Source: an uncultured Pseudomonadota bacterium
GTDB taxonomy: Bacteria > Pseudomonadota > Alphaproteobacteria > Rs-D84
Direction: 5' to 3'
Assembly (NCBI GenBank): GCA_949283535.1
Contig: CASDTC010000004.1
Coordinates: forward strand, 4,579-68,578
Length of the DNA: 64,000 nucleotides
Shown piece after piece: positions 19,406 through 58,530 of this stretch (within the stretch, counting starts at the first letter, position 1; each line of letters begins with the position of its first letter). The position numbers and the translations under genes are program-made. The notes below the pieces were generated by a model. The model worked only from the letters and a program-made list of their open reading frames with translations. It ran no database searches and was not told the origin of the DNA.

Positions 19406-19464
19406 AAACGAAAAACGCCCCAAAATGGGGCGTTTTTTATCGCGAATACAGCAGAAGTCCCCAC

Positions 19465-19620: not shown

Positions 19621-19690
19621 GGTAATTATCGTACTGACCGGCACGGATAACGAATCATTGTGATTGGAAATACTAATAATATTCTGGTTT

Positions 19691-19972
19691 TTATTGTATC
19701 ACTGCGGTTTTTATCATGGCAACATCTTCACGAATTGTATCGATTTTTATCTGTAATTGCCCGATACCGGTTTCCAGAATTGTTGTTCGGTTTTCTAGTG
19801 CGGTCAAGCGATGATCCGCACGATCCAGTTCCGCCAATGACGAATCCTGGCGTGCGACCCAATAAATCATGCCGGCAATAAATGCAATTAAAAACCAACT
19901 GTTGCGTAAAAAATCCAGTACCCCCATTGCCGTGGAACCCGTTTGTGTTGTCATCTTACTTACCCCGTTCAA
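19691..19972 (-). CDS. small membrane/coiled-coil protein (phage-associated)
   Basis: TM segment followed by a coiled coil. Lies downstream of the portal gene. Confidence 0.35.
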   Translation of the reverse strand: MNGVSKMTTQTGSTAMGVLDFLRNSWFLIAFIAGMIYWVARQDSSLAELDRADHRLTALENRTTILETGIGQLQIKIDTIREDVAMIKTAVIQ

Positions 19973-20147
19973 TCATGCTTTCAATTTGATGAACCAGGGC
20001 GCGTTGTGCTTCCAGTCCACGCAATTGCGCATCGGTGGCGTCTGGTCCCAATACGCGTTCAATTGTGATTTTACGCAAATGCCGCAATACCGCCGCCCCA
20101 GCCGATGTTGAAAATGTACGCGTATAATTTTGTTCTAAATCTTTCAT
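19956..20147 (-). CDS. small hypothetical protein (phage-associated)
   Basis: 63-aa ORF directly downstream of the portal gene, same strand. Confidence 0.25.
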   Translation of the reverse strand: MKDLEQNYTRTFSTSAGAAVLRHLRKITIERVLGPDATDAQLRGLEAQRALVHQIESMIERGK

Positions 20148-20163
20148 GAAATTTGCCCCCTGA

Positions 20164-21387
20164 TTAAATTAATGTTTCTTCGATTGCCATTTGTGCGATT
20201 GGCGCGATATATTTTAATTCTGTATCACTGTGCAGTGATATTTTATCAATCACGCCACGGCGCGATAAAATCTGCAATCCGCGTTCAACCAATGGGCGAA
20301 TAAATTCATGCAACAGTCGTCCATATGTCGCCCCCAGAATTCGCATCATATCCGCATTGCGCGCCATGATTTCAGTGGCAGTCATTTCTTTTTCACTTAA
20401 CAGCCCTAATCTGTCCGCCAGTAATGCATGACGAATCCGTTCACGCAAATCTTTTAATACAATCTGGGACACATCGAAATCTGCCCCAGATGATAATGGT
20501 GTCAGACCAGATGAACCAACCGCCTTTGGTATTATCGCCCCCGGGGTCAGATTTATATTCGACAGATTTATAACGCCGTCATCATCCGCCTGCCATATGC
20601 CAGAAACAGCAATTGTTGCGTTCTTTAAAACCAATTCAACGACTTTGTTCGCGGTTTTTATATCTGGCAATGCACGCAATACGGGACCACGCCCATATTG
20701 TTCACCACTGGCAACCGACCAACGAAATATTATGTATGGATTCGTTTCAAATTTGCCCGTTGATACAATATTGTTTTCAATATTACCGCCAACATCCAAC
20801 CATGCGGTAAAGTCTGTATCAATTAAACTTTGTACCAAACGCAATGGGGTTTCCGGATTATTCTTTATTTCATCACGCAGGTTTGCCGGCGGCGTCCATG
20901 TTGGGTATTTTTCCAGTACTTCACGTGCGGGCATCGTTGCCGTGTGAAATACAGCACCATTTAATGTTGCAATATCACGCATTGGAATCGCAGTAAATGA
21001 AAACGCAGATGCCGCACCAATCGGATTTTCCGCCATAAACAGGCATGCTGTCCCCAGTATTATTAAATCCATATAACATTGATGAATTGTTGTATAGAAA
21101 TTTGAATCATTCAGATTTGCACGCAATGCCATTGTTGCCGCGGCGGCATCTGGGGAATCAGCACTTTCTGGGACCAATGATATCCACAGTGATTCTGGTG
21201 GTGTCAGCAATGAATAAATTGATGCCGCCAGATTGTCAACCGCATCGGCGGCGGTGGCATCAAATAATGTTGCGGCATCGTCATCCGCCGTTGGCATGGT
21301 ATAGCGCAACGCACTGTCCCATCTGTTTAACCATGGCGCACGCAAATCTATCGCGCGCCGATACATTTGTTCAAGATTTTTATGCAT
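20164..21387 (-). CDS. phage portal (head-to-tail connector) protein
   Basis: About 408 aa from MHKNLEQMYRRAIDLRAPWLNRW..., podovirus connector-like. Lies 20 nt downstream of the terminase nuclease half. Confidence 0.55.
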   Translation of the reverse strand: MHKNLEQMYRRAIDLRAPWLNRWDSALRYTMPTADDDAATLFDATAADAVDNLAASIYSLLTPPESLWISLVPESADSPDAAAATMALRANLNDSNFYTTIHQCYMDLIILGTACLFMAENPIGAASAFSFTAIPMRDIATLNGAVFHTATMPAREVLEKYPTWTPPANLRDEIKNNPETPLRLVQSLIDTDFTAWLDVGGNIENNIVSTGKFETNPYIIFRWSVASGEQYGRGPVLRALPDIKTANKVVELVLKNATIAVSGIWQADDDGVINLSNINLTPGAIIPKAVGSSGLTPLSSGADFDVSQIVLKDLRERIRHALLADRLGLLSEKEMTATEIMARNADMMRILGATYGRLLHEFIRPLVERGLQILSRRGVIDKISLHSDTELKYIAPIAQMAIEETLI

Positions 21388-21406
21388 GAATTTTTCCTTT
21401 TGTCTG

Positions 21407-22255
21407 CTAAATTTTAAATTCTGTGTTTGCTGTAAATGGGCGGGTGCGTTGCCCCAATGGGCGTACAGGAATTGGTTGTGCACAAATTGCGCCGGCAACC
21501 GCGTCCAGTCCGTCATCATGCCCCAGCCCGCCCAATGGCGACCAACCTAACATTTCTGCAATCAATGGGGTCGCCTGGATACGCTGGTGTGCGTACAGCC
21601 GTCCTGTTGTTAAAACAGGTTCAATCGCATCTAAAATTCTGGATTCTTTGTTTTTATGATTGGTTATGTTAACTATATTAACCGATGTACCGCGATTACG
21701 CGCAACATCACGCATGATTTCAGGCAATGCATTTCCAATACCATTTGTTTCAATGCATATTCGATGTATACTGTGGTGTTGTAAAAAGCCCAATACCATT
21801 TCACACTGGCGTGCCAATGGATGTAATTCTGTATCTGGAACAATTAAATACAGCGCATCATGAATAAATATACATCTGTTTTTATCATCACGGTACAATA
21901 ATACACAAACACTGGCGTCTGATTTTTTACGTCCAGACGATGGATCCCAATATGCCGCCGCGCCTGTTATTAAATGTTCGCCAATGCTGGCGGTATTCAT
22001 ATTAAATTCTGCATCGTATAAATGCAATGCATCTGGGTCCAGGCGGGCGCGTTCAGGCGCAACAAATTCCAACATCATTTGCGCGGAAAAATATCGTGCG
22101 CCAACAGCATGGCGCATTTCATCAATACGCGAAATCGGAAACATTTCTGGCCATGCAGGTGTGCCGTCCCTTGAAATTACAGGTATTTTTAATTCACGAT
22201 ACCCACGCAAAAAAGGCGTTGAAAAAACAAAATTTTTAGATACCATATCTGACAT
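21407..22255 (-). CDS. phage terminase large subunit, C-terminal nuclease half (split gene)
   Basis: RNase-H-like nuclease motifs GRKKSDASVCVLLY and C-terminal GHDDGLDA. Has its own ATG. The N-terminal ATPase half lies 3.3 kb upstream on the same strand. Confidence 0.7.
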   Translation of the reverse strand: MSDMVSKNFVFSTPFLRGYRELKIPVISRDGTPAWPEMFPISRIDEMRHAVGARYFSAQMMLEFVAPERARLDPDALHLYDAEFNMNTASIGEHLITGAAAYWDPSSGRKKSDASVCVLLYRDDKNRCIFIHDALYLIVPDTELHPLARQCEMVLGFLQHHSIHRICIETNGIGNALPEIMRDVARNRGTSVNIVNITNHKNKESRILDAIEPVLTTGRLYAHQRIQATPLIAEMLGWSPLGGLGHDDGLDAVAGAICAQPIPVRPLGQRTRPFTANTEFKI

Positions 22256-23810
22256 GGATTTTACCCCAAAAACATTACCAACAAATCTGGAAGCAGAACA
22301 GGCGGTATTGGCGGCTGTTCTGATGAATAATCGCGCGTTGGAACGCGTGTCTGAATTTTTAAAACCGGAACATTTTTCACATCCGGCACACCAAGAAATT
22401 TACAAACTGGCACAACGACAATTTGCCGCCGGTATTCCGTTTGATATAATCACGGCAAAAAATTATCTGGATCAACAAGGAACCCTGGAATCTGTTGGCG
22501 GTGTTGATTATTTAACCCAATTGGCAGGTGCAGGTGCAACAGTTGTAAATGTTGAACAATACGGTCGCATCGTTTATGAAAATGCAATGCGGCGCGAATT
22601 AATTAACCTGGGGCAATCAATTACAGATGCTGCATTTGTCGAAGATTTAGACAATCCTGTATCTGCACAAATCGAAACCGCCGAACAAAAACTGTTTGAA
22701 ATGGCGTCCAGCGGTGTTTCCGAACGCGAAGTGTCATCAATCGCAACCGCATTGCAAAGCGCCCTGCAAGAAGCAGAAATTGCATACAAGGCAGATGGTA
22801 AATTATCTGGTTTGACAACTGGGTTAAATGCATTAGATAAATCAATCAGTGGGTTGCACCATTCTGATTTAATTATAATTGCGGGGCGTCCTGCAATGGG
22901 TAAAACAACACTGGCAATGAATATCGCATTTAATGCCGCAAATGCAATTCTGTATGGACGCGCAAATGAAAAGTACAAAGGCGCAGTTGCATTTTTCAGT
23001 CTGGAAATGTCGGCATCGCAACTGGCGGCGCGCGTGTTATCATCACAATCCAAAATCCCCGCATCTGCCATGCGCGAAGGTTCATTGACCGATGAAGACT
23101 TTTTAAAAATGTCCCAATATTCATCCGCAATTGGCAAGGTACCATTATATATTGATGATACCCCGGGAATGTCGGTACCAATGATACGAACACGCGCACG
23201 GCGTCTGGCGCGTAAATGCGGCGGAATTGCATTAATCGTAATTGACTATCTGCAATTAATGACATCTCCGGGTGGGCGCCGCAACGATAACCGTGTCCAA
23301 GAAATATCTGAAATCACACGTGGGCTGAAAATGTTGGCAAAAGAATTAGATGTCCCGGTTATCGCCCTGTCCCAGTTGTCGCGCAGTGTGGAATCCCGCG
23401 ATGACAAGCGCCCACAACTGGCAGACTTGCGTGAATCTGGTTCAATTGAACAAGACGCCGATATTGTTATGTTCACATATCGTGAAGAATACTATCTGGA
23501 AAATCGTGATCCATCACAACGCATTTCAGGAAACGCAAATGATAAAATTATCGAAAGTTATCAAAAGCGTTTGGAACGCGCACGCGGTAAAGCCGATGTT
23601 ATAATCGGTAAAAACCGTCATGGTCGACCAGAAACGGTGCATTTGGCGTTCTTTGGCGATTACAGTCTGTTTGATAATTTGGACGAAATTGATGCACGCG
23701 GAATGAACGAATTTTCCGCCCAGCAACAAAGCACACCACAAATTGGTGATGAAGATTTCGAACCAACACCAATTGATACAGATGCAATCCCTGATGATAT
23801 GCCGTTGTAA
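22254..23810 (+). CDS. dnaB: replicative DNA helicase DnaB with an acidic C-terminal extension
   Basis: N-terminal EAEQAVLAAVLMNN, Walker A GRPAMGKTT, KNRHGRPETVHLAF near the C-terminus, then an acidic tail of about 45 aa. ATG overlaps the divergent start of the terminase nuclease half by 2 nt. Confidence 0.85.
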   Translation: MDFTPKTLPTNLEAEQAVLAAVLMNNRALERVSEFLKPEHFSHPAHQEIYKLAQRQFAAGIPFDIITAKNYLDQQGTLESVGGVDYLTQLAGAGATVVNVEQYGRIVYENAMRRELINLGQSITDAAFVEDLDNPVSAQIETAEQKLFEMASSGVSEREVSSIATALQSALQEAEIAYKADGKLSGLTTGLNALDKSISGLHHSDLIIIAGRPAMGKTTLAMNIAFNAANAILYGRANEKYKGAVAFFSLEMSASQLAARVLSSQSKIPASAMREGSLTDEDFLKMSQYSSAIGKVPLYIDDTPGMSVPMIRTRARRLARKCGGIALIVIDYLQLMTSPGGRRNDNRVQEISEITRGLKMLAKELDVPVIALSQLSRSVESRDDKRPQLADLRESGSIEQDADIVMFTYREEYYLENRDPSQRISGNANDKIIESYQKRLERARGKADVIIGKNRHGRPETVHLAFFGDYSLFDNLDEIDARGMNEFSAQQQSTPQIGDEDFEPTPIDTDAIPDDMPL

Positions 23811-23879
23811 AATATTTTCTGCTTGCCATATTTCTGAAAATTGACTAATATTTTGTCAAGAATTGACAAGGAGTTTGCG

Positions 23880-24887
23880 ATGGCCCAAGAAGAAATAATT
23901 TTCCCAAATAATATCAGAAACATTCGATTGGCAAACGGCATGAAGATGACCGAGTTGGCACGCCAGGCAAATTTGTCTTTATCTGCAGTATCCAAGATAG
24001 AAAAAGGTGTTCGCCGTTTAAACCAAAAACAGTTATTGAATATCTGCAATATTTTAGGCTGTAAACTGTCGGATATTTTTATCAAAGAATCTGACGATGT
24101 TGCCGGACAATGGCAAAATGAAATTAAGCGCAGATTAAATGATAACGAAGACAGTGGGCTGAAAATATTTGGCAGCGGGCTGCGCAAAATCAGGCAACAA
24201 TCTGGTAAAACAATTGCCCAGGCGGCAAAAGATGCAGGTATGACATTGTCTGTATATCATAAGATAGAAGTTGGGCAACGCGAAATATATCAAAATGAAA
24301 TCGAGCCATTGGCAAAATCTTTTTCTTATACAGTTGGCGATATGTTTGATAAAATCGCTGCAATGTATAAATCGGGTGAATTAAACAAACAAATTAATAA
24401 GGTTAAGGAACGCGTTAAATCTGTTCTGATTCCGGGCAGTCCATTGTCTGGTATTGACATGCACAGCAGTCTGTATGGTGCAAAACTGTATGACAGTGCG
24501 CGTAAAAAATTGGTTCCTGTATTTGGCACGCCATCTGGCAAATCAATCACTTTTAAAAAATCAGATAAAACCATGATTGTTGCCCCAATGCCACTGGAAG
24601 GACATAAAGGAATTTACGCCGTAATCCCAAATTCAAAACGATTGGGTGGTTTTATTCCTGAAAAATCATATGTATTTGCAGATGCAGATACGCCCGCAGC
24701 GGTTGGTGATTTGGCGGTATGTATCGATACCGATTTTAATTCAATGGATTCAAATGATGTTGCAACCGCACAAATTGTCAGTGTCCGCCAGGATTCCAGG
24801 GGCAAAATATACGGGCAAATCGCATCACCCGAAGAAAAAATTATTGGCAAAAACATGCACAAGGTTGTTATGATTGTAATGGAATAA
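23880..24887 (+). CDS. CI/LexA-like repressor with tandem XRE HTH domains and a C-terminal S24-peptidase-like domain
   Basis: Two HTH_3 modules (MKMTELARQANLSLSAVSKIEKG and KTIAQAAKDAGMTLSVYHKIEVG). C-terminal beta-rich domain with an LexA-like layout. RBS aaggag. Confidence 0.55.
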   Translation: MAQEEIIFPNNIRNIRLANGMKMTELARQANLSLSAVSKIEKGVRRLNQKQLLNICNILGCKLSDIFIKESDDVAGQWQNEIKRRLNDNEDSGLKIFGSGLRKIRQQSGKTIAQAAKDAGMTLSVYHKIEVGQREIYQNEIEPLAKSFSYTVGDMFDKIAAMYKSGELNKQINKVKERVKSVLIPGSPLSGIDMHSSLYGAKLYDSARKKLVPVFGTPSGKSITFKKSDKTMIVAPMPLEGHKGIYAVIPNSKRLGGFIPEKSYVFADADTPAAVGDLAVCIDTDFNSMDSNDVATAQIVSVRQDSRGKIYGQIASPEEKIIGKNMHKVVMIVME

Positions 24888-24911
24888 CATTTCTGTACAG
24901 GGGGGACAAAA

Positions 24912-25592
24912 ATGAACGCAAAAGCCAGCACAACCGCACAAAAATTATTAAACCTGTATCGCCAAGAACATGTTATTTTCGGCGGATGGGCAGCCGTTAA
25001 TCAGGTCTTTGTCAATGAAGCCACCCCAGAAATCTTGCGCGAATTACGCGAATTGCCAACCGGAAAAAATCTGATAAAACATATTGAAAACCTGCGCAGT
25101 GGTAAAACAAAAATGGATTCCATTGAACGCGAACTGTTGCCGTATGGTGGATTAATGGCGGAAACCATTGCAACCGTACCGTTGACATCGAATGAATGGA
25201 ATGAATTAGAATCTGGGATAAATTCATTTACCACCGACCAAGAAGGATTAGACCGAATACAACAATTAAATGTTATAAAAAAATTTGGCGACCAATGGAT
25301 TGTTGCAATACGTGCGGCATTATCAGAACGACCAGATTTATTAGAAAAATGGTCAATCGTTACAAAAACATATCGTGCATATTATTTATGGAAGGTTGCC
25401 AGCGATATGCTGAACCAACCATTATCTGAACGCGCACGCGCACAATTACAGGCCGACATGCCAGAATATGAAACATATCTGCCAATGTTTGGCGATAAGG
25501 GTACAGAACTGTTAGAAAAACTGCGTTCATTTATTACAACGATGAAACCGATTGAAACAGATAACGCCCCAGATGCCCCAACATCTATCTAG
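24912..25592 (+). CDS. hypothetical protein
   Basis: 226 aa with no recognisable motifs. Stops converge on the terminase ATPase half with a 4-nt overlap. Confidence 0.45.
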   Translation: MNAKASTTAQKLLNLYRQEHVIFGGWAAVNQVFVNEATPEILRELRELPTGKNLIKHIENLRSGKTKMDSIERELLPYGGLMAETIATVPLTSNEWNELESGINSFTTDQEGLDRIQQLNVIKKFGDQWIVAIRAALSERPDLLEKWSIVTKTYRAYYLWKVASDMLNQPLSERARAQLQADMPEYETYLPMFGDKGTELLEKLRSFITTMKPIETDNAPDAPTSI

Positions 25593-26245
25593 CCCCCATC
25601 GTTATCATGTGTTCTGTAAATCGTATCCATTGTATGTGGTGTGCCAATATATAACATTGTCCCAGTGGGGGATAAAATAAAATCCAATTCACGCAATCGT
25701 TCCCGCAATGCCGTGCGTTTTTGTGTGGTGTTTGATGTGTTTGGGACCTCTATATCATCACAAATAATTAAATCTGCACGCATTCCTGTAATATTGCCAT
25801 GAATGCCTTGGCACATAACGGATGGTTCGCGTATTCCAATCGCACGATTTATGGTTATTCGACCATTTGCCCATTCTTTTTTATTTTTAGGAATCAGATT
25901 TGCACATCGTGGATGATTTTCCAATATATGACGAATATGCGATACCATACGCGTTGCCAAACTGTTTTCAGCAGACAATATCAGGATTCTGGTTTCTGGG
26001 TACAGGTATAAAATACATGCTGCAAATATACCAACAACTGTTGATTTACCAGAATGCCGAAATGCCATCAACAACCCACGATGCGGTGGCGTTTCCCATA
26101 TTGATACTAAAAATTCCATGATTCGCCGGTGATGTGCCGGCGTGGTCAGTCCCAATATATCGTTCCATTCATCCAGAAATTCATAAAACGCCGTAATCAT
26201 CGCGATTTTCATTTGGTGCAGGTTCTGTAATACTGCCATAATCAT
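25589..26245 (-). CDS. phage terminase large subunit, N-terminal ATPase half (split gene)
   Basis: Walker A AFRHSGKST, Walker B ADLIICDD, coupling motif YIGTPHT. Ends shortly after the ATPase domain. Confidence 0.7.
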   Translation of the reverse strand: MIMAVLQNLHQMKIAMITAFYEFLDEWNDILGLTTPAHHRRIMEFLVSIWETPPHRGLLMAFRHSGKSTVVGIFAACILYLYPETRILILSAENSLATRMVSHIRHILENHPRCANLIPKNKKEWANGRITINRAIGIREPSVMCQGIHGNITGMRADLIICDDIEVPNTSNTTQKRTALRERLRELDFILSPTGTMLYIGTPHTMDTIYRTHDNDGG

Positions 26246-26729
26246 TTATTAATTTTGGCAATGCATTTTCCAGAACAGATACCAAATTCCCATACAATCC
26301 CATTACCGCCCCACCGGTTAGTTTATCTTGGATAACACTTAAATTATATTCCAAAAATGCCATCACATTATTGTGGGTGTTTTTCCATTCGGTTAAATCA
26401 ATATCTATTTCATGTAAATCACGAAAGGCTTCGACCAAAAAATTAAAATCAGAATTTAAATTTTCTGGGTCTATTTTTGCAGTAGGCTGGTAATCAATAA
26501 CACGCGTTAATGCAATTTGGCGAAAAATATCAATTTGTGCGCCTGATTCTGGGGCAATGGGGAAGACAACCGTGCCACCATCAAAATCGTCATTTGCAAC
26601 AACCGCATAATTTGCAGAATCCATAACAGATTCATTAATCGCAACCCGAACATCTGCATCCTGGAAAAAAGGGAATGCAAAAATATACTGCGTTGTTTCG
26701 CCATCGCCGGTATATGATACTTTATACAT
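26181..26729 (-). CDS. T7 gp17-like tail fibre, N-terminal tail-attachment domain only
   Basis: MYKVSYTGDGETTQYIFAFPFFQDADVRVAIN resembles T7 gp17 VLTYQLDGSNRDFNIPFEYLARKFVVVTLIG. Only 182 aa. 3' end overlaps the terminase ATPase half out of frame. Confidence 0.45.
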   Translation of the reverse strand: MYKVSYTGDGETTQYIFAFPFFQDADVRVAINESVMDSANYAVVANDDFDGGTVVFPIAPESGAQIDIFRQIALTRVIDYQPTAKIDPENLNSDFNFLVEAFRDLHEIDIDLTEWKNTHNNVMAFLEYNLSVIQDKLTGGAVMGLYGNLVSVLENALPKLINDYGSITEPAPNENRDDYGVL

Positions 26730-26743
26730 TTTATTCCCCGTTT

Positions 26744-27091
26744 TTATCCGACCAAATCATCAAATTTATCCAATAATGTTTGCAACAGGTTTGGACGCTG
26801 TGCTTTAGTTTGTTTTAATTTTTCCATATTTGCACGGCGGCGTTCATTATATGGTTGCGCTGTTTCAGATTGCAATCTTTTCAACACCGCGCCAGTTGAC
26901 ATACTGCGTCCAGATACACCAGACGCGCCATATTTTGCACGTTGGGTTGCCAATGCTTTTTTTACCAGGTTTGTTTTTTCACGCTCGTCCGCCGCCATAT
27001 CAGATAAAATTTGTTGGCGGGTGTTTTCAGCCTGTTGTTTTGAATCCTTGTAATCTAAAATACTTTTTACATCTGATACCAATTGTCCCAT
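26744..27091 (-). CDS. coiled-coil virion-associated hypothetical protein
   Basis: 115 aa, predicted helical, sits between tail tubular B and the fibre stub. Confidence 0.35.
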   Translation of the reverse strand: MGQLVSDVKSILDYKDSKQQAENTRQQILSDMAADEREKTNLVKKALATQRAKYGASGVSGRSMSTGAVLKRLQSETAQPYNERRRANMEKLKQTKAQRPNLLQTLLDKFDDLVG

Positions 27092-27114
27092 TGTATTTAC
27101 CCCTTGGATTAAAT

Positions 27115-28830
27115 TTATACTATGTAATATCCGTACATCGATACAGACAAAATTGTTGATGGTAATTGTTCACTGCTGGAAATTTTCCATGGCGCATTTA
27201 TACAATTACGTTGAACCCCCAGTAAATTTACAGATACATCACCACTGTATCCAGATGACGCGTCATCGTATATATCGTTCGGCAATGATGCGCGCGCGTC
27301 ATTTATAAATAATGTTTTTGTATTTAAAACCCGCGCAGATATTTTACGAATTTTCAATTTGTTCGCATTATGACCAGACGCACGCAGCGGCATTGCCGCC
27401 GCAGCAAACGAAAAACCATATTGACCCGCATCGTTTAATGCAGTATCTGAAAATTTTTCCAGAAAATAATTCGCACCCCGGGCAACAACCGTATATGTTT
27501 GACCATCCAGTGTCGCAACAGATTTAAATTGACCCTGGGTTTTATATTGCGCCCATGCAGAAATCCCCAATGCAGAATTCTGATTTAAAACCGCCATATC
27601 GCCATCTGACATTACAACAAATAATTGCCGGGTATTATCATTATATGATAAATCAACCGGATCACGCATTAAATGCTTTGCCGCGGCACATAAATCATTT
27701 GCATTATAATATTCGCCCAATTGATCCAAGCTTAATTCACGAATGTCTTTTTTACCCGCAGATATGAATACGGTTGCCCCCTCTATCTTTTGTGGCGGCA
27801 GATATCTGGACGCAACGCTGCCAACAGATGTGTGTTGTTTTATATCAACCGCCGATGGTGTTAATGGCTTGCTGGAAATCGCCCATTCACCAGCATTTGT
27901 TAAAATTTGTAAATTATCGCTGCTGACAACTGTGCATATCTGTTGACGCTGTTGCGACAGTAATGTTAAAAAGATGGCTTCATCATCCAGACCAGTTCCA
28001 ACATTAAAATTATTATGCCGTCCAACACGCGACATCCATACGCCACTGGGCCATGCACGCGAACCACCAAACACCAATCTGTCTTGATGAAATGTAATAC
28101 TGCACGGCCAGCCACGGCGCGTGCTGAATGCCGCTTCGTACCAATCGGATACCGGGTCTGATGGTATTGAATATGTGCCGTTTGTATATGCATACACAAC
28201 CGTTGGACTGACATATTCTGTGATTATCCATTGTTTATCCAGTAATAAAAAGCGCCCGTCTTCATTTTCAGATGTCCAAAAATTTTTATTTGTTGTAAAT
28301 GTTGCATAGTTATTACCACTGGCATTTGATGATACTGTTATCTTTATGCCATCTGCATCATCAAATTTCATAAACGGTATATTTACAGTCATATCAGAAT
28401 CATTGCGTTCAAAGTCAAATGCAATGATATCAAATGTGCTGTCTGTTTTCTGTAATACATATGGTTGATAATCTGGATGAACAAATATCATTGTGCCAAA
28501 TCGCTGGGCATATTGCAATTTATCCAATTCATCAAAATCCCATGGTGCAAATAAATCTGCAATACGAACATCATCGCTGTACACTAAAATATGTCCATCT
28601 GTTAAAACCAGCAAGTAATTTTCTGATTCGCCAACAGAAAACGGTATCAGACGCGCCGATGACGATAAATTTGCAACAGACGCCAATCCACGGCGCCGTT
28701 GTAACCCACCCCCCGCCAGCACATCCATATTTTCCAATCGCGACAAACCATTTAAATTATCGCGGGCAAAAAATTCTGGCGCGACTTCACCGTCTGCAAA
28801 TGAATTCTGTGTTTTTATAAAATCGCCCAT
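27115..28830 (-). CDS. T7 gp12-like tail tubular protein B
   Basis: N-terminus GDFIKTQNSFADGEVAPEFFARDNL...GLQRRRGL matches T7 gp12 ISQSIKNLKGGISQQPDILRYPDQ...GLQKRPPL. 571 aa. Confidence 0.6.
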   Translation of the reverse strand: MGDFIKTQNSFADGEVAPEFFARDNLNGLSRLENMDVLAGGGLQRRRGLASVANLSSSARLIPFSVGESENYLLVLTDGHILVYSDDVRIADLFAPWDFDELDKLQYAQRFGTMIFVHPDYQPYVLQKTDSTFDIIAFDFERNDSDMTVNIPFMKFDDADGIKITVSSNASGNNYATFTTNKNFWTSENEDGRFLLLDKQWIITEYVSPTVVYAYTNGTYSIPSDPVSDWYEAAFSTRRGWPCSITFHQDRLVFGGSRAWPSGVWMSRVGRHNNFNVGTGLDDEAIFLTLLSQQRQQICTVVSSDNLQILTNAGEWAISSKPLTPSAVDIKQHTSVGSVASRYLPPQKIEGATVFISAGKKDIRELSLDQLGEYYNANDLCAAAKHLMRDPVDLSYNDNTRQLFVVMSDGDMAVLNQNSALGISAWAQYKTQGQFKSVATLDGQTYTVVARGANYFLEKFSDTALNDAGQYGFSFAAAAMPLRASGHNANKLKIRKISARVLNTKTLFINDARASLPNDIYDDASSGYSGDVSVNLLGVQRNCINAPWKISSSEQLPSTILSVSMYGYYIV

Positions 28831-28846
28831 TTATCCCCCCCTGTAA

Positions 28847-29365
28847 TTAAAATCGCGTATTTATCAAAGAAAAATTTTTTATCCCTGCTGTCGGTGCAGA
28901 CGCACTGTCAATATATTTTGCAGATTGTAATTCTGTTTCATATAACGCCGCCAACATTCTGAATACCGTTTGTTCACCAATTAGCGGAATGCAAAATTCC
29001 ATTGCCAATTTCGTTGCCACCAATGATACAAAATAACTGGGGAATAATTCAGGCGCGACACGAATAATTGCGGTTATATTTATTGTATCTGTCGGTGCAA
29101 TAACCGTATTTCCGATTATTTCACCATTGCACTTTAAAACGCGCAAAATATCCGCAGGCAATAAAAATTCGCCATCATTATTTTTGGTCAATTCAAAACA
29201 TTTACATGCAAATCGCCATGGATGCATTGCCAGTAATGCATCAACCACTGGGTCAAATAAAGTTCGCCCCAATTGCGCCGCGGGCGTGTCATCCAGTAAT
29301 GATTGTATCGGTTTTTCACCCAATTTTAACAGCGCCATTGAACATAAATCTATTTTTGTATGCAT
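28847..29365 (-). CDS. T7 gp11-like tail tubular protein A
   Basis: MALLKLGEKPIQSLLDD matches gp11 ILASIGEPPVSTLEGD. 172 aa. Confidence 0.55.
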   Translation of the reverse strand: MHTKIDLCSMALLKLGEKPIQSLLDDTPAAQLGRTLFDPVVDALLAMHPWRFACKCFELTKNNDGEFLLPADILRVLKCNGEIIGNTVIAPTDTINITAIIRVAPELFPSYFVSLVATKLAMEFCIPLIGEQTVFRMLAALYETELQSAKYIDSASAPTAGIKNFSLINTRF

Positions 29366-29420
29366 TTGTGTTATCCAATTTTATATTAAAAAAACGGGGT
29401 GCCGTGGCACCCCAATTAAA

Positions 29421-29648
29421 TTATGCCAATGCAGCAACCGCCACATTCGTACTGACCGTTATTTTCTTTATCGATGTATTATCAGATGCATTAATAATAA
29501 CGATATCACCAGTGTTCATTAATGTTTTGACGCTGTCAAAATATCCAGATGCGGAAATTGTCGCCATTGTTTCTGTTGATGCATAATGCCACAATGTAAA
29601 TCCGTTTGCATATGCGATTACAGATAAATTTTTATTTTGAAAAGCCAT
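29421..29648 (-). CDS. small hypothetical protein between capsid and tail tubular A
   Basis: 75-aa ORF with a consistent operon position. Confidence 0.3.
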   Translation of the reverse strand: MAFQNKNLSVIAYANGFTLWHYASTETMATISASGYFDSVKTLMNTGDIVIINASDNTSIKKITVSTNVAVAALA

Positions 29649-29675
29649 TTATAATTTCCTTTGTTTGCATTTAAA

Positions 29676-30512
29676 TTAATCACCAGTTTCATCAGTATCT
29701 TTGCATTTCAAACGAACAATGCCGGCATTATCAATCAATACAGCGCCCTGGGACATACTGTTGCTGATAAAGTGCGCAGCGCGTTCACCATGCCATGATA
29801 TATCCGTTTTTACTTCTTGACCGCATGCATGACCAATGCTGGTTGCATGATAAATAAAGCAATCACGATTATCTGTGCTGGTTAATGGCAAACTGTTATA
29901 CATTACCCATGTTATCCCCAGCCATTTCTTGGATGCACCCCCAGACACCAATGGCAAATCGTTACCAACATAATCCGCAGATACAAATTCGTCCATGGAC
30001 AGTAATTCATTCCATTGGTGTACGCCAACAACAGCAAAACGACGACCATCATCAGGAACATCGTTCTGATTTAAAACTTCGACCGCTGATAAAATTAAAT
30101 CCTTGGTCAGCCCTGTTGAATAATCACCTGTTGCATTTGTTGCGCTATTCATTGCATTCACAATCAATTCATCTGTCTTGCGCCCCAATGCATATGCACC
30201 TGCAGATGCAACAACACGGCGTTCATCAACATTCGTTTTCAATTCATCCAATGCATCAACCCAATCACCGGCATAGTAATCTTGCAATATACATTCAACA
30301 GGTTCATGATTTAAATTCATAACCGGTACAATACCATGACGCGACTTTGTGGCGGCGGTACCGCGTCCAACCTTTTGAAAAGTTGTCGATGCCCCAACAA
30401 CACCGGATTTGCTGCGTACTGTTGCGCGCAATTTTGTACCCATTTGCTGATACGCCAAATGTACATCCGCTTCGAATTGTTTGATAAAAACCTGATCTAC
30501 TGAAACAGACAT
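29676..30512 (-). CDS. major capsid protein (T7 gp10-like)
   Basis: DQVFIKQFEADVHLAYQQ...TVRSKSGVVGASTTFQKVGRGTAAT resembles gp10 ALFLKVFGGEVLTAFAR...MVRSISSGKSAQFPVLGRTQAAY. Lies directly downstream of the scaffold gene. Confidence 0.55.
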   Translation of the reverse strand: MSVSVDQVFIKQFEADVHLAYQQMGTKLRATVRSKSGVVGASTTFQKVGRGTAATKSRHGIVPVMNLNHEPVECILQDYYAGDWVDALDELKTNVDERRVVASAGAYALGRKTDELIVNAMNSATNATGDYSTGLTKDLILSAVEVLNQNDVPDDGRRFAVVGVHQWNELLSMDEFVSADYVGNDLPLVSGGASKKWLGITWVMYNSLPLTSTDNRDCFIYHATSIGHACGQEVKTDISWHGERAAHFISNSMSQGAVLIDNAGIVRLKCKDTDETGD

Positions 30513-30718
30513 TATTTATTTCCCTTGGTTAAAAAAATTAAAACAAGCGCCAATATGCGCCGATAAAATTTTGTATTATGGTTATGCAATTTAATTGCGC
30601 CATTTAACAAAACATGCGGGTCCACACGGGATTGTCCAAATAAAAAATATTCAGTCAGACTGATATAATCCGACTGAATATTTCAAAATAAAAATCCCCG
30701 CAATTGCGGGGAATTATA

Positions 30719-31090
30719 TTATTTTCTTTTTGCACATGTTTTTTTTGCCGCTGGCTTTTTCGCCGCAACTTTTTTAACAGGTGCCTTTTTTACTGCTGCC
30801 TTTGCGACTGGTTTTTTCGCCGCAACTTTTTTTGCAACCGTTTTTTTTGCAACCGTTTTTTTTGCAACTGGCTTTTTCACTGCAACTTTCTTTGCCGCTG
30901 GTTTCTTGGCAACCGCAACTTTTTTAACAGCCGGTTTTTTCGCTGCAACTTTTTTTACAGCAGGCTTTTTTGCAACTGGTTTCTTTGCCACGGCAACTTT
31001 CTTTGCCGCAGGTTTCTTTGCAGCCGGTTTTGCCGCTGGCTTTTTCGCAGCAGGTTTTTTGGCGGCTGGCTTTAAGAATGTGAATGCCAT
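30719..31090 (-). CDS. lysine/alanine-rich histone H1-like DNA-binding protein
   Basis: MAFTFLKP followed by about 20 KPAAKK/KKVAVAKKP repeats. Good RBS ggagagaag. Not a CRISPR array despite the nucleotide periodicity. Confidence 0.7.
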   Translation of the reverse strand: MAFTFLKPAAKKPAAKKPAAKPAAKKPAAKKVAVAKKPVAKKPAVKKVAAKKPAVKKVAVAKKPAAKKVAVKKPVAKKTVAKKTVAKKVAAKKPVAKAAVKKAPVKKVAAKKPAAKKTCAKRK

Positions 31091-31196
31091 TCTTCTCTCC
31101 TTCTTCATTTTTTGGATAGAACAAATTTGTTTTGTTCTTACTTTATATTTTATATGAAACAAAAATATTAGTAAAGAAGAAAGTGCATTTTTTTCA

Positions 31197-31853
31197 TTAC
31201 GAATATAATTTTTTAAATCCATTTTCTATTTTGCGAACATATTCTGGATCATAATCACGCCAATATTTTGGATCACGCATCATGCGACGCAATTCAGAAT
31301 CAGATAAATTTTTTATATCTTCATCATCGGTACGAACACTGGGTTCCATCGATTGCATCATTCGGTATACGCCTTGGATTCCCTGGGGTGTGGCACATAA
31401 TGCATCAAATGCATCACGCGGTAAATATTTTTGTCCGAATGAATTTATTGCGCGTAATGCATCATTCATTTTTTCTGTTGTGCCAAAAAAATTTTTTAAT
31501 TCTGCAATTGCATTTGATTCATTTTGCATATCAAATAATTCTGTTAATACGGGTGATAAAAATTCTTCGGCAATTTGATAAATTTTTTCAACCTGGGTTG
31601 ATGTTAATCCAATTTCAAAAAATTTTTCACGCACTGCGTCATCATCAAATAACTGATTCGTTGGATATTCTGATGCAGATTCTGGAACACCAATTGCACG
31701 ATTAAATTTTGCACGCGATGCACCATCAGCATCATTGCCAGGCACAGATATCATCGTTCCAATTTTCTTTTCTAATTCAATATATGATTTTAACAACGCA
31801 TCTGTGTTTAATGTTCCGTCTTTATTCAGAAATTTTTCTGGAATGTTTTCCAT
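31197..31853 (-). CDS. capsid assembly scaffolding-like protein
   Basis: 219 aa, helical and acidic, positioned like T7 gp9 immediately upstream of the capsid gene. Confidence 0.45.
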   Translation of the reverse strand: MENIPEKFLNKDGTLNTDALLKSYIELEKKIGTMISVPGNDADGASRAKFNRAIGVPESASEYPTNQLFDDDAVREKFFEIGLTSTQVEKIYQIAEEFLSPVLTELFDMQNESNAIAELKNFFGTTEKMNDALRAINSFGQKYLPRDAFDALCATPQGIQGVYRMMQSMEPSVRTDDEDIKNLSDSELRRMMRDPKYWRDYDPEYVRKIENGFKKLYS

Positions 31854-32043
31854 GTTTTTTTCCTTTGGTTTCACTGGATTTGCGCAAGAAATAAATTCCG
31901 CCCAATGTAAATACAGATTGCAACATAGTAAATATATCGGTATCGCCAACCATATATGCACCAATTGCAGACAATATACCAATTCCTGAAATGATATATG
32001 TTCGATGTCCGGATAAAAATCCGCCACTGATAATTTTTCGCAT
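31822..32043 (-). CDS. small membrane protein, possible holin
   Basis: 73 aa with TM segments (IISGIGILSAIGAYMV) and a charged C-terminus. Lies between the hydrolase and scaffold genes. Confidence 0.3.
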   Translation of the reverse strand: MRKIISGGFLSGHRTYIISGIGILSAIGAYMVGDTDIFTMLQSVFTLGGIYFLRKSSETKGKKHGKHSRKISE

Positions 32044-32056
32044 GATTGTTTTCCGA

Positions 32057-32467
32057 TTATAAATAAAACAACAGTCCATCTATATCTGCGATATATCCGC
32101 GCGATGTTGACCATGCCGGCATTTTATCTGCATGATGAAAACGCGTTGCGCCATTGCATGAATCTGGTAACGCGCCATGCAACATTCGTGATACCACACG
32201 CAGACACATCTGAAATTTATTGTCAGATGCATTAACAAACAATAATTTATTGTTTTCAGATTTTGAATCCAGTGAATTAAATAATTCTGAATCCGATATT
32301 ATATCTGAATAATCACGACCAGTGACATGGGCAATATTTGCAATCATTGATGCCATTGCTTCGACCAATCGTAATGTTGATGCATGTGTTTCAGCATATA
32401 CCACCCGTGCAATTTGATATAATATGGCGCGCGATTTATCTGGATTGTTTATCAGTGTTAATTGCAT
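32057..32467 (-). CDS. SleB-like cell wall hydrolase (Hydrolase_2 family)
   Basis: ARVVYAETHASTLRLVEAMASMIANIAH matches the A..VY.EA...E...G..AVA.VI.NR motif. Likely the endolysin of the phage cluster. Confidence 0.6.
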   Translation of the reverse strand: MQLTLINNPDKSRAILYQIARVVYAETHASTLRLVEAMASMIANIAHVTGRDYSDIISDSELFNSLDSKSENNKLLFVNASDNKFQMCLRVVSRMLHGALPDSCNGATRFHHADKMPAWSTSRGYIADIDGLLFYL

Positions 32468-32612
32468 TTGACAATCCCCCCGTTGTTGCAAATAAAAACG
32501 GCACGCAATAAATGCGTGCCATAAAATAAAAAATCCGCCATACGCGGACATAATCTTTCTGATTATGTGTTATATATTATCATAAATTGGATATAAAGTC
32601 AAGATAATATTT

Positions 32613-33293
32613 TCACATACTGATTTCGTCACCATATGCCAATAAATAACGCGTATCATTGCGCAGCACCAGCGCACCATTTTCATTAATTCCGATTAAT
32701 TCCATTTCTTCGCCACGATATTTCACTGTGCGATTTAATCCCGCCGCTAAATCCATCCAACGCGCGCGAACATCGACAAATGGTATGCGGCGCCACCGAT
32801 CCAGATTCTTCATCAAACGGTTTAATAATTCTGATTTTTCAACCGTGGCATAATTATCCAGTTTCGTTGTTTGATATGCGGCAACCGTTGGATTTGATTT
32901 TATATTTATTCCAATTCCGACAATAACAAATTGCCCCGCATATTCAATTAATATGCCACATACTTTTTTACCATCAATTAAAATATCATTTGGCCATTTT
33001 ATTTTTGGATGAATTCCAAACGAAATCAGTGTTTCTGCAACTGCGACCGCAACAACATATGACAATCGTGGGTCGCGTTCATCGGCATTATAAATAAAAC
33101 TGGCATACAAATTACCATGGTGCGACACCCATGTGCGCCGATATCGACCGCGTCCAGCGGATTGCGCCATTGCCATAATAACAGTATGATCACGCGCCGC
33201 GCCAGATGCAACCATTTCCAACGCATATGTCTGGGTACTGGGGATTTTATCAAAAGAAATCAATTTATAATTTGCCAATTGAATATACACCAT
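32613..33293 (-). CDS. birA: biotin--[acetyl-CoA-carboxylase] ligase
   Basis: QSAGRGRYRRTWVSHHGNLYAS signature and KIKWPNDI. No N-terminal HTH domain. Confidence 0.85.
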   Translation of the reverse strand: MVYIQLANYKLISFDKIPSTQTYALEMVASGAARDHTVIMAMAQSAGRGRYRRTWVSHHGNLYASFIYNADERDPRLSYVVAVAVAETLISFGIHPKIKWPNDILIDGKKVCGILIEYAGQFVIVGIGINIKSNPTVAAYQTTKLDNYATVEKSELLNRLMKNLDRWRRIPFVDVRARWMDLAAGLNRTVKYRGEEMELIGINENGALVLRNDTRYLLAYGDEISM

Positions 33294-33741
33294 TTACATT
33301 TTTTATAAAATCATGTCCAAAGGCACGGCGTAATTGATAAATTGCCGTATCAACCGTATGCGTTGTTGCATCTGGTGAATACCCCAATGCCGTGCGCAAT
33401 TGTACTGCCGACATGCCCCCAGATTTGTATAACAATATTATAATTTTTGCCTGAATTGCGGGCATTTGTACATTACGACCAAAAATTTCACGAATTATTC
33501 GTATATCATCATCCAATGCATGCTGAATTACACTGCGCAAATTCATGATTGATATTGGCGTTGTGATATTCAATGCATCGAAATCCAGCCCGGTTGCAAT
33601 TGGTGCATCGGATACATTCGCCCCCAGGTCGGACAATATATGCCGCCATATTGAATCTGATGAAAAAATATTTATACCGTCCAGCATAGTCCCAGAATAA
33701 TAAAAGAACCCGCAATTGTCCAACAAAAAAGACCGCGACAT
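33265..33741 (-). CDS. winged-helix (OmpR/PhoB C-terminal-like) DNA-binding protein without a receiver domain
   Basis: C-terminus MSAVQLRTALGYSPDATTHTVDTAIYQLRRAFG...GVYSIGKL fits the trans_reg_C pattern. Confidence 0.45.
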   Translation of the reverse strand: MSRSFLLDNCGFFYYSGTMLDGINIFSSDSIWRHILSDLGANVSDAPIATGLDFDALNITTPISIMNLRSVIQHALDDDIRIIREIFGRNVQMPAIQAKIIILLYKSGGMSAVQLRTALGYSPDATTHTVDTAIYQLRRAFGHDFIKNVNGVYSIGKL

Positions 33742-33771: not shown

Positions 33772-34017
33772 TTATTCGCGATCTTTGCCACGCGGTTCAA
33801 TGAATTTTGTAAAATCTTGGATACTGGCGCCAGTTGACGACAATATCTTGGAAATACTGTTTGTTGATGGCCAACGCGGTTGCCCTTCCTTGGACCAGCG
33901 CTTGCTTTTATTAAAAGTTGTCGGATCCAAACCGCTGCATTTTGCCAATCCAGAACAGGACATGCCATGTTCCGTGGCAAAGCGTTCAATCGCCCGCCAA
34001 ACATCTTCGTGTGTCAT
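33772..34017 (-). CDS. 81-aa HTH protein, paralog of the gene at 39530-39760
   Basis: MTHEDVWRAIERFATEHGMSCSGLAKCSGLDPTTFNKSKRWSKEGQPRWPSTNSISKIL. RBS aagggagagag. Confidence 0.55.
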   Translation of the reverse strand: MTHEDVWRAIERFATEHGMSCSGLAKCSGLDPTTFNKSKRWSKEGQPRWPSTNSISKILSSTGASIQDFTKFIEPRGKDRE

Positions 34018-42901: not shown

Positions 42902-42974
42902 TGGTGGGCGTACAGAGATTTGAACTCTGATGGGTTTCCCCACTGGAACCTAAATCCAGCGCGTCTGCCAGTTT
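42902..42974 (-). pseudogene. partial duplicate of tRNA-Leu (3' 73 nt from D-loop to CCA), non-functional
   Basis: 3 mismatches to the intact gene over 73 nt. The 5' side is unrelated sequence, so the acceptor stem cannot form. Confidence 0.7.
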
Positions 42975-43026
42975 GACTACTGCGCCTGCGTTCCACTGCG
43001 TGTCGCCAGTTTTTTATCAATGAATT

Positions 43027-58505: not shown

Positions 58506-58530
58506 AAATGCGCCAATGGCGCATTTTTTA

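Follow-up and report, generated by a model that had tools for sequence, protein, structure and literature searches.

The 64-kb stretch of DNA analysed here (the window) belongs to Candidatus Enterousia, a gut alphaproteobacterium of the order Rs-D84 with a genome of less than 1 Mb. Its minus strand carries, between 19.7 and 32.5 kb, a cluster of phage-derived genes that is probably the domesticated, vertically inherited remnant of a temperate T7-like podovirus lacking its own RNA polymerase (RNAP), and a candidate gene transfer agent (GTA)-like viriform that still builds particles. The window was analysed by mapping open reading frames (ORFs) and by profile searches. Relatives were gathered by scanning one genome per GTDB species with an alignment of tail tubular protein B (tubB); 149 genomes matched, and the best 80 loci were compared. 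These 80 loci carry the labels Candidatus Enterousia or uncultured Alphaproteobacteria, lie on contigs of up to 958 kb (one being a circular metagenome-assembled genome of 958,618 bp) and derive from the guts of chickens, ruminants, horses, mice and humans.

Gene order is the same in every sufficiently long locus, including a large terminase (TerL) split into two genes and a cassette composed of dnaB, a helix-turn-helix (HTH) gene and a gene named p226. The cluster always lies downstream of the genes HTH81, p158 and birA, and IMG/VR fragments keep the same order at tubB identities as low as 50-56%. The host gene birA, for biotin-protein ligase (32613-33293, minus strand; TIGR00121, 161 bits against a cut-off of 83), adjoins the cluster directly upstream in 68/68 loci that reach that far. 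Host genes past the block differ by lineage and its edges are constant, the genomes having undergone rearrangement around an intact unit.

The reading frames are likewise preserved. A single high-scoring segment pair (HSP) covers at least 85% of the gene in nearly all copies, and genuine internal stops number two in about 1400 gene copies (the capsid gene of locus L068 and the HTH gene of L043), in agreement with the intact ORFs reported in a preliminary description of this DNA. Against the two nearest relatives (L008 and L009), the ratio of nonsynonymous to synonymous substitution rates (dN/dS) is 0.03-0.23 for all phage-derived genes, 0.05-0.12 for birA and 0.02-0.03 for dnaB; these values come from untrimmed alignments, and their range agrees with the corrected medians. 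The latter, like the identities given below, were computed on alignments trimmed to true starts, as tblastn HSPs overran stops upstream of the starts. Over species pairs with unsaturated dS, median dN/dS is 0.04-0.34, with values of 0.06 for the portal, 0.07 for the capsid, 0.08 for tubB, 0.11 for each terminase half (TerL-N and TerL-C) and 0.34 for the lysin. The comparison of synteny and dN/dS that had been proposed as a check revealed one gene order and purifying selection in all genes. The numbers of species pairs with dS below 1.2 were 656 for the capsid gene, 1370 for the scaffold gene and 12 for tubB, and the many unsaturated pairs for capsid and scaffold indicate constraint on synonymous sites, as expected of very highly expressed genes.

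Mean protein identities across 60-80 species are 86.8% for the capsid (78 loci), 83.6% for DnaB, 82.5% for the portal, 82.4% for the HTH protein, 78% for TerL-N, 68% for BirA, 65% for tubB, 63% for TerL-C and 55.5% for the lysin, such that conservation of the capsid matches that of the replicative helicase. For the structural genes, pairwise distances are correlated with the DnaB distances (r=0.82) and with those of BirA (r=0.70) and the flanking genes FKBP and p187 (r=0.78), with co-divergence judged by gene-pair distances rather than by a genome-wide species tree.

Several properties of GTAs are found together in this cluster. It is caudovirus-derived, chromosomal and vertically inherited, as indicated by its position beside birA in about 80 species loci and by the distance correlations. 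It is under purifying selection and evolves more slowly than its viral homologues. Neither the 64-kb window nor the flanks of the related loci hold genes for autonomous replication, integration or excision. The preliminary description had offered two readings. That of a decaying or recently dead prophage does not survive the finding of some 80 intact species loci, of dN/dS far below 1 in every gene and of co-divergence with the host. That of GTA-like domestication is strengthened, as a reading of the sequence, by vertical inheritance, purifying selection, a fixed place beside host genes, the absence of an integrase or replication module and regulation that appears to be of the late-operon type.

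Virion and lysis genes

In the order of transcription, the cluster encodes a lysin, a 73-amino-acid (aa) ORF, a scaffold, a Lys/Ala/Pro-rich protein, the capsid, a 75-aa ORF, tail tubular protein A (tubA), tubB, a 115-aa ORF, a fibre anchor, TerL-N, TerL-C, the portal, a Bbp19-like ORF and an 87-aa protein with a transmembrane (TM) helix and a coiled coil. The module is T7-like in having a gp8-type portal, a gp9-type scaffold, an HK97-fold capsid, tubA and tubB, a gp17-type anchor and a T7-type TerL nuclease. Matching Pfam and PHROGs families bear out the earlier assignments of lysin, scaffold, capsid, tubA, tubB, fibre stub and portal. The gene identities proposed in that list were sound, and it had omitted the Lys/Ala/Pro-rich protein and the 75-aa, 115-aa, Bbp19-like and TM/coiled-coil ORFs. 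A circular permutation of the T7 map had also been proposed, and here the order proved to be a rearranged T7 map, with distant relatives having the order portal-scaffold-capsid-tubA-tubB-TerL-lysin. Coordinates below refer to the window and to its minus strand unless noted otherwise.

Head proteins give the strongest family matches. The capsid (29676-30512) matches PF19821 (3.7e-72) and phrog_3437 (2e-72), and in its nearest solved structure, 9eg4, the asymmetric unit comprises seven chains, a number consistent with T=7. The 407-aa portal (20164-21387) matches PF12236 (8.1e-81) and the T7 portal structures 6r21 and 3j4a. The 218-aa scaffold (31197-31853), like T7 gp9, matches PF05396 (Phage_T7_Capsid) above its cut-off (2.3e-9), and a 218-aa gene is called at this position in relatives. 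Between scaffold and capsid lies a Lys/Ala/Pro/Val-rich repeat protein (30719-31090) that starts MAFTFLKPAAKK and resembles histone H1 and HC2 in composition, its match to PF07382 (HC2; 1.6e-15) being a compositional one. This protein is present in 65/65 loci with lengths of 72-204 aa, mostly no more than about 160 (the longest include an upstream extension to the first ATG), and is missing from more distant relatives with an unsplit TerL. After the capsid gene comes the 75-aa ORF (p75; 29421-29648; phrog_18004, 5e-14), which is 39% identical to the phage MEP301 ORF at the same place (gp30, between capsid and tubA).

The tail genes follow. The gp11-like adaptor tubA (28847-29365) matches phrog_394 (6.5e-32), and the 571-aa gp12-like nozzle tubB (27115-28830) matches phrog_376 (2.8e-82) and PDB entry 8ck1, 'Tail Nozzle' (2e-32); its length is 569-575 aa in all 120 homologues listed. 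At the position of T7 gp13/gp14 lies a helical 115-aa ORF (p115; 26744-27091) that is intact in 85/86 loci and has a sub-threshold match to PF24072 (T7_gp14; E=0.076). It is the sole ORF between tubB and the anchor, an interval with no gene the size of gp15 or gp16. The next gene (26181-26729) encodes the N-terminal anchor of a fibre or tailspike, followed by a short helical extension; residues 4-95 match phrog_1640 (8e-16), the N-terminus of tailspike Dpo31 in the PDB is matched at 7e-5, and PF03906 is matched weakly. This protein could be a stub or an adaptor, perhaps for a tailspike encoded elsewhere. Its gene is cleanly deleted in one subclade (L002-L007, L013, L015, L017, L018, L021, L022, L025, L026, L029, L059 and L109-L113), where TerL-N starts a few bases after the p115 stop and the other genes are intact.

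Genes of likely lysis function stand at both ends of the cluster. The SleB/Hydrolase_2-like endolysin, 136 aa from its conserved ATG (32057-32467), matches phrog_938 (2e-8) and scores 21 bits with PF07486 (Hydrolase_2), under the cut-off of 27; a 136-aa gene is called here in relatives. The 73-aa ORF (31822-32043), found in 63/64 loci at 75% identity, had earlier been called holin-like. Its hydropathy profile, which has two hydrophobic segments, and the basic tail at its C-terminus support this label; no family match was found, and the label is therefore one of composition. Behind the portal lie the 63-aa Bbp19-like phage protein (19956-20147; PF25181, 2.7e-10) and the last gene of the block (19691-19954), whose 87-aa product (p93; 87-93 aa) has an N-terminal TM helix and a coiled coil in a spanin-like architecture, matches phrog_736 (function unknown) and is present in 73 loci.

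The window contains no RNAP, DNA polymerase, core proteins of gp15/gp16 size, small terminase (TerS) or integrase, as had been noted before, and no receptor-binding fibre domain among its proteins. No single-subunit phage RNAP and no phage DNA replication genes are present in it, and the closest phages are also temperate and RNAP-less. The earlier account of missing functions needs amendment on one point, namely that the cassette within the cluster carries dnaB, and thus the block does contain a replication gene, of cellular rather than phage type.

The split terminase and the regulatory leader

The most unusual feature of the cluster is its terminase. A large terminase had been recognised previously, and its ATPase and nuclease domains are indeed present; they reside in two ORFs parted by 3.3 kb rather than in one gene. 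TerL-N (25589-26245), the ATPase domain, matches positions 267-459 of phrog_38 (5.8e-41), and TerL-C (21407-22255), the RNaseH-type nuclease domain, matches positions 466-700 of the same profile (6.8e-38) as well as PF22530 (9e-9). The halves thus match consecutive parts of one TerL profile, with the break falling at the linker between ATPase and nuclease, a domain boundary. Walker A (RHSGKST), Walker B (LIICDDIE) and the GTPH coupling motif of TerL-N are invariant in 78 loci, and the catalytic D (YWDPS), E (IETNG) and DD..D (HDDGLDA) of TerL-C are invariant in 72 loci. Because all catalytic motifs are invariant in these 72-78 species, both halves are, judged by sequence, almost certainly active enzymes.

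The 3.3 kb between the halves hold plus-strand genes, which the preliminary description had left out along with the leader described below. The first, dnaB (22254-23810, plus strand), encodes a replicative helicase of the cellular, alphaproteobacterial type; it scores 619 bits with NF006606 (cut-off 540) and passes TIGR00665 (513 against 385), whereas it fails the phage DnaB model TIGR03600 (415 against 499). Over both sets of comparisons, its dN/dS is 0.02-0.04. The second (23841-24887, plus strand) encodes HTH348, a double-HTH regulator of the XRE or Cro/CI type with two PF01381 domains (6.9e-20) and a beta-rich C-terminal domain, which matches phage repressor PHROGs and has a dN/dS of 0.07 at the 82.4% mean identity given above. 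The last (24912-25592, plus strand) encodes p226, a lineage-specific protein of 226 aa that belongs to no family and gave no informative fold match. The TerL-N stop overlaps that of p226, and the TerL-C ATG overlaps the dnaB ATG within CATG. TerL-C has its own ATG, and its ribosome-binding site (RBS), GGGG, is encoded by dnaB codons 4-5. The dnaB promoter (22210-22253, plus strand; TTGAAA, 16 nt, TAC[C/T]AT, here TACCAT) lies in roughly codons 1-15 of TerL-C and shows conservation of 90% or more among the loci. Within TerL-C codons 1-20, the entropy of third positions is 0.6-0.8, compared with a gene mean of 1.43, and this lowered variability is attributable to the promoter on the opposite strand.

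No conserved promoter for terL-C was found on its strand inside the cassette. One candidate for a dedicated sigma-70-like promoter of terL-C and the portal gene, ~270 nt upstream, occurs in 11/72 loci and was rejected. There is also no strong terminator between TerL-N and the cassette, and the simplest reading of these two findings is that transcripts read through p226, the HTH gene and dnaB in antisense. Other ways of uniting the halves were considered and discarded. A rearrangement that would rejoin terL by excising or inverting the cassette, in the style of skin or nifD, finds no flanking direct or inverted repeats and no recombinase, and all loci are split. A split intein or intron is rejected because TerL-N extends ~7 residues past the ATPase profile and TerL-C begins ~17 residues before the nuclease profile, extensions too short for intein halves; the insert, moreover, is encoded in the other orientation. 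When TerL-C was searched against the full database, it returned many stand-alone nuclease-domain proteins of ~275 aa that are 36-45% identical to it and that all start at one and the same motif of the linker, FL.G...LKIP, their ranks interleaving with those of full-length TerLs of 480-515 aa. A two-gene terminase arranged around a host dnaB operon appears to be undescribed in the openly readable literature.

Upstream of the lysis and structural genes, the cluster begins as a late operon would, with a promoter followed by terminators. The near-consensus sigma-70-type promoter (32574-32602) consists of TTGACT, a 17-nt spacer with an extended -10 TG, and TAATAT, and is the only zero-mismatch match to TTGAC-N15-TGnTAnnnT in the cluster. 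Its -35 and extended -10 elements are invariant or nearly so in 49 species. The leader then has a conserved start region, CATAAACAG, ahead of tandem intrinsic terminators (32533-32549 and 32498-32522), which are followed by a G-rich RBS and the lysin ATG. This layout is kept in the 49 aligned species, with invariant T-tracts and with compensatory changes in 12/12 predicted stem pairs. Such a covarying leader of promoter and double terminator appears to be undescribed in the openly readable literature.

Further control elements lie inside the cluster. The conserved non-coding region 5' of the capsid gene (30513-30718) contains a terminator (30695-30712) and, conserved across 78 species, a long hairpin (30644-30684; AAATATTCAGTCnGAT...ATCnGACTGAATATTT), a second hairpin with a T-run and the invariant motifs GGAnAATCC, GGACCC, TTTATGGCGCA and TGCATAACCA. 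A hairpin with a T-run is found 5' of the capsid gene in 77/77 loci, compared with 0/78 and 0/81 at control junctions. Transcripts might be processed in this region, or a second, regulated start might lie there; a sigma-54 promoter in it (TGGCGC...TGCAT) was rejected on the ground that its spacing differs between species. An intrinsic terminator after capsid and p75 (29395-29414), placed like T7 T-phi after gene 10, is present in 56/79 loci with a median free energy of -16.6 kcal/mol. A strong bidirectional terminator (19411-19437) closes the block, and a hairpin with a T-run follows p93 in 34/68 loci. Neither the leader hairpins nor those upstream of the capsid gene have a significant match in Rfam.

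Two genes at the upstream edge encode candidate regulators. HTH81 (33772-34017), an 81-aa Cro/CI-type HTH-like protein, forms the constant left edge of the block, travels with it through genome rearrangements and is its most conserved protein (mean identity 92%, 62 loci). Its family matches are sub-threshold (HTH_26, E=0.0013; PDB 3b7h, prophage Lp1 protein 11, E=0.038), and both it and the double-HTH protein are Cro/CI-like at the level of the domain only. The p158 ORF (33265-33687), which overlaps the start of birA, encodes a 140-aa winged-helix protein. Its AlphaFold2 model has a predicted local distance difference test score of 86.5, Foldseek matches are solely to winged-helix regulators of the MarR/OmpR type (E>=5e-3), one homologue is named 'winged helix-turn-helix domain-containing protein' by NCBI and the Pfam Trans_reg_C match is weak. 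As an antiterminator resembling Q or GafZ it was rejected, given that the confident model shows just a generic winged-helix fold.

Setting, origin and rival explanations

The rest of the window is ordinary chromosome, with ackA, recG, genes for RNase E/G and RNase PH, uppS, rseP, bamA and birA, as well as genes for FKBP, a VirB11-like ATPase, oleate hydratase, a parC/gyrA-like protein, nrdD and tRNAs. Type IV secretion-like genes are scattered on both flanks of the cluster (a VirB8-like protein, then two ORFs of no assigned role, at 16317-18450, and a VirB11-type ATPase at 35470-36465), and might conceivably have to do with the uptake or export of DNA. Two further ORFs (50080-50829 and 52532-53590) have lytic-transglycosylase-like domains, matching phrog_873 and phrog_7182 (endolysin/tail-injection transglycosylase) and no Pfam family; lying outside the cluster, they are probably host enzymes or VirB1-like components of a type IV secretion system. 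A cysteine-rich ORF of 237 aa (37159-37872, minus strand) matches no Pfam or PHROGs family, tRNA-Leu(TAG) occurs twice in tandem at 42902-43111, and the G+C content (GC) falls to 0.32 near 58-60 kb (58000-60000), where the ORFs lack family matches. An exact-protein look-up found two window proteins to be without an existing record. Enterousia (Rs-D84) genomes are below 1 Mb, reduced and densely coding (90%), have lost most biosynthetic pathways and do not accumulate pseudogenes (PMC12306168). The element is mentioned neither in that study nor in openly readable papers that pair Rs-D84 with prophage.

Among isolated phages, the closest are temperate T7-like podophages without an RNAP, namely EXVC031P and HTVC-type phages (Pelagibacter), MEP301 (Methylophilales) and YeP4-6 (Yersinia). 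Identity to isolated phages is just 25-43%, the best values being 43% for the capsid, 32% for tubB and 31-36% for TerL-C, and a tblastn search with TerL-C returned 9 matches among 50,697 phage records. The closest capsid in the phage collection, 64% identical, is on an unverified 'Bacteriophage sp.' scaffold from human faeces in Mexico (MT838907.1; 5,084 bp; L180), whose order portal-scaffold-capsid-p75-tubA-tubB is that of T7. IMG/VR contigs with capsids 82-85% identical (group B) have the same TerL split and cassette. In another contig (IMGVR_UViG_2820136564_000001; GC 51%; L120:4731-13855), with a capsid 75% identical, TerL is also split around dnaB. Its cassette differs in having dnaB beside TerL-N, an 834-aa protein of no known family and another order, and TerL-C is separated from the portal by a ParA-like ATPase and a 155-aa ORF. 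By these sequences, the association of terL with dnaB predates the genus Enterousia. IMG/VR 'viral' contigs of 10-12 kb that begin just upstream of the capsid ATG were considered as packaged fragments and rejected, their ends being read as boundaries set by provirus software.

More distant clusters (group C; L160-L179) have capsids 53-62% identical, occur in hosts of GC 34-72% and are compact (~9-11 kb). Their order is portal-Bbp19-scaffold-capsid-tubA-tubB-(small ORFs/fibre)-TerL-lysin; they have no cassette, and matches to TerL-N and TerL-C are adjacent. In one of them (L178:413-9327), which adjoins a host trmA-like gene, TerL is a single 485-aa ORF, and the same unit of promoter, leader and terminator precedes its first gene, that of the portal. 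These clusters may be full prophages or further domesticated elements. By comparison with their unsplit order, the Enterousia arrangement is derived: its lysis genes have come to stand first, the portal module has shifted behind TerL, and TerL has been split.

The working that we propose starts at the strong, constitutive-type promoter downstream of birA, from which transcripts would normally end at the two leader terminators, whose sequence and covariation are observed. On some signal RNAP would become resistant to termination, as it does at lambda PR'-tR' with Q or in the Caulobacter GTA (CcGTA) with GafZ. By this analogy, the late operon is probably under processive antitermination control, and HTH81, p158 and the double-HTH protein are candidates for the factor. 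Transcription would run through the leader and across the terminators that follow the Lys/Ala-rich gene and the capsid-p75 pair; the polymerase would then continue antisense through p226, the HTH gene and dnaB to terL-C and the genes for the portal, Bbp19-like protein and p93. Particle production on one side and expression of dnaB and the repressor-like HTH gene on the other would thereby be mutually antagonistic. Scaffold, capsid and portal would form a procapsid, with TerL-N and TerL-C, by homology and intact catalytic motifs, acting as a two-polypeptide terminase. If no small terminase takes part, initiation of packaging would be non-specific, and its absence from the window is consistent with such packaging. 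A short tail would be formed by tubA and tubB with an optional fibre anchor, and the holin-like ORF, lysin and TM/coiled-coil protein may lyse the producing cell. The particles would lack ejection proteins of the gp15/gp16 type; any delivery might, speculatively, depend on uptake functions of the recipient, as with the Rhodobacter-type GTA (RcGTA).

Several points weigh against the reading of the cluster as a GTA-like viriform. The host is uncultured, and the assignment is made from genes alone. The window lacks several components on which a T7-like virion ordinarily depends, namely a small terminase, core proteins of the gp15/gp16 type and the receptor-binding domain of a fibre, and in one subclade the fibre anchor is missing too; these gaps fit a non-infectious particle without proving one. 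A T=7-type head could, by analogy, hold far more than 13 kb, and such a capacity would call into question whether the element fits the criterion that a GTA cannot package all its own genes. The nuclease activity of P74-26 TerL needs the ATPase domain (PMC5389665), and by that precedent the two pieces of the Enterousia terminase would need to associate. No Q-family or GafZ-like antiterminator was recognised in any ORF of the block with Pfam, PHROG or NCBIfam models, and the leader could instead encode a small RNA. The cross-species comparison, finally, spans ~20 kb per genome, a range beyond which lie dnaB copy number and any unlinked particle genes.

In an explanation that we consider unlikely yet the most serious of the alternatives, the cluster is domesticated and expressed and the particles, or some of the proteins, serve something other than gene transfer, such as killing of competitors (as with PBSX), programmed lysis with release of DNA or nutrients, or phage decoy or exclusion. 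The conservation evidence applies to it equally, the ejection proteins, receptor-binding domain and small terminase were not found in the window, and the subclade that lost its fibre anchor shows no decay of the remaining genes. The authors who described the Faecalibacterium element FpGTA raise the same caveat for it (PMC12946183). Yet the portal and both TerL halves are under strong purifying selection with catalytic residues kept, which makes sense only if DNA is packaged, and no killing activity like that of a contractile tailocin is known for the short tail of a podovirus. A defective but still mobile element, such as a satellite or capsid-forming island whose missing functions are supplied by a co-resident phage, would also account for a block that has its own capsid, portal and terminase while lacking several virion functions and all those of replication and integration. 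Host flanks that vary by lineage, the viral label given to the region by IMG/VR pipelines and the spread of unsplit-TerL relatives over hosts of GC 34-72% are in keeping with this idea. We nonetheless judge it improbable, since no integrase, excisionase, att-like repeats or replication initiator were found, the block holds cellular-type birA and dnaB, divergence follows that of host genes, and the variable flanks are accounted for by host rearrangements that keep the same block edges.

The interleaving of dnaB and birA with the cluster raises one more explanation, that of an inactive prophage remnant retained because deletion would remove the essential dnaB inside it or the birA beside it. The internal stops in the L068 capsid gene and the L043 HTH gene would suit this idea. 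However, hitch-hiking guards against large deletions and not against point mutations or frameshifts, whereas about 14 phage-derived ORFs are intact, with the low dN/dS values given above and synonymous sites near saturation, the regulatory hairpins carry compensatory substitutions, the capsid is as conserved as DnaB and these reduced, densely coding genomes do not build up pseudogenes (PMC12306168). Purifying selection at the level of the ORF is something that hitch-hiking with dnaB and birA cannot explain, and we regard an inactive remnant as very improbable. A domesticated podovirus remnant of GTA-like character, still building particles, remains the reading that we favour.

If this reading is right, genomes of less than 1 Mb that lack most biosynthesis devote ~1.5% of their DNA to a phage-derived particle machine, and selection on its genes as strong as that on core replication genes points to an important, unrecognised function in a widespread gut lineage. 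If the particles move DNA, they would represent an independent origin of a GTA from a T7-like podovirus, added to the few known families, and a mechanism of recombination for symbionts with reduced genomes. A conserved split TerL, if confirmed, would question the need for tethered ATPase and nuclease domains, and the placement of dnaB between its halves would suggest an arrangement in which chromosome replication and particle production inherently oppose each other. We also put forward, as a doubtful though possible combination, that in Enterousia and its Rs-D84 relatives the element represents a third GTA family of the Alphaproteobacteria, domesticated independently and of T7-like podovirus descent; that its late operon runs antisense through the dnaB operon and uses a two-polypeptide terminase, such that commitment to particles silences the helicase and the CI-like regulator through transcriptional interference; and that these partner-dependent gut bacteria of sub-1-Mb genome owe their escape from mutational decay to gene exchange that takes place mainly through the particles.

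Comparison with known systems

We found no paper on a T7-type GTA or on the Enterousia element in the openly readable literature, and the cluster was compared with systems that share parts of its organisation. RcGTA (Rhodogtaviriformidae) and CcGTA (Caulobacter) resemble it in being phage-derived head, tail and packaging clusters on alphaproteobacterial chromosomes that co-diverge with the host, evolve slowly and lack replication and integration genes. They are released by lysis, and lysis genes are present in the Enterousia cluster, where the likeness is one of gene content. The CcGTA cluster has internal terminators bypassed by GafZ antitermination (Tran & Le), and Enterousia likewise has internal terminators, in addition to its conserved promoter and double terminator. 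In contrast, RcGTA and CcGTA are siphovirus-like with a long tail, whereas the tail genes of the Enterousia cluster are all of the podovirus tubular A/B type, with no match to tape-measure or tail-tube families, and its portal, scaffold and terminase nuclease domain are, like tubA and tubB, T7-type. It differs further in its split terminase, with no small terminase found and no GafY- or GafZ-like protein recognised.

The Bartonella element BaGTA (Bartogtaviriformidae) is also alphaproteobacterial, host-associated and a domesticated cluster (~14 kb) tied to a replication function. That tie is an adjoining phage-derived run-off replication origin in BaGTA (PMC9662315) and a helicase gene inside the cluster in Enterousia, which shows no sign of a run-off origin. 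BaGTA particles are reported to be long-tailed. The Sulfitobacter phages pCB2047-C and NYA-2014a, with which the TerL of BaGTA groups (PMC9662315), are both absent from the nine phage-record matches of TerL-C, and this indirect test does not support kinship with BaGTA.

Among phages, the RNAP-less podophages (HTVC019P-type, EXVC031P, MEP301 and YeP4-6) provide the best matches for tubB, capsid, portal, p75 and TerL and share the local order of portal, two small ORFs, scaffold, capsid, small ORF, tubA and tubB. They differ in having genomes of 34-35 kb with integrase, DNA polymerase, primase/helicase, internal virion proteins, full fibres, TerS and a one-piece TerL. The late operon of lambdoid phages (PR'-tR'-Q) has a similar strong promoter, an intrinsic terminator, lysis genes first and further internal terminators to override. 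Unlike it, the Enterousia cluster has two leader terminators and no detected Q-family protein, and would need antisense passage through a host operon.

A podovirus-like GTA has been proposed in Faecalibacterium, where FpGTA, near-ubiquitous in the genus, has a ~10-kb operon that encodes TerL, portal, scaffold, capsid and short-tail proteins and is documented by particles, packaged DNA of 8-9 kb and proteomics (PMC12946183). The likeness, of a podovirus-like operon in a gut bacterium, is one of description, as the Enterousia element is known through its genes. FpGTA differs in its host (Firmicutes), in its putative TerS and in a second operon with a receptor-binding protein and lysis genes, and the Enterousia element has another gene order and a TerL split with dnaB. 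FpGTA is a functional analogue in another phylum.

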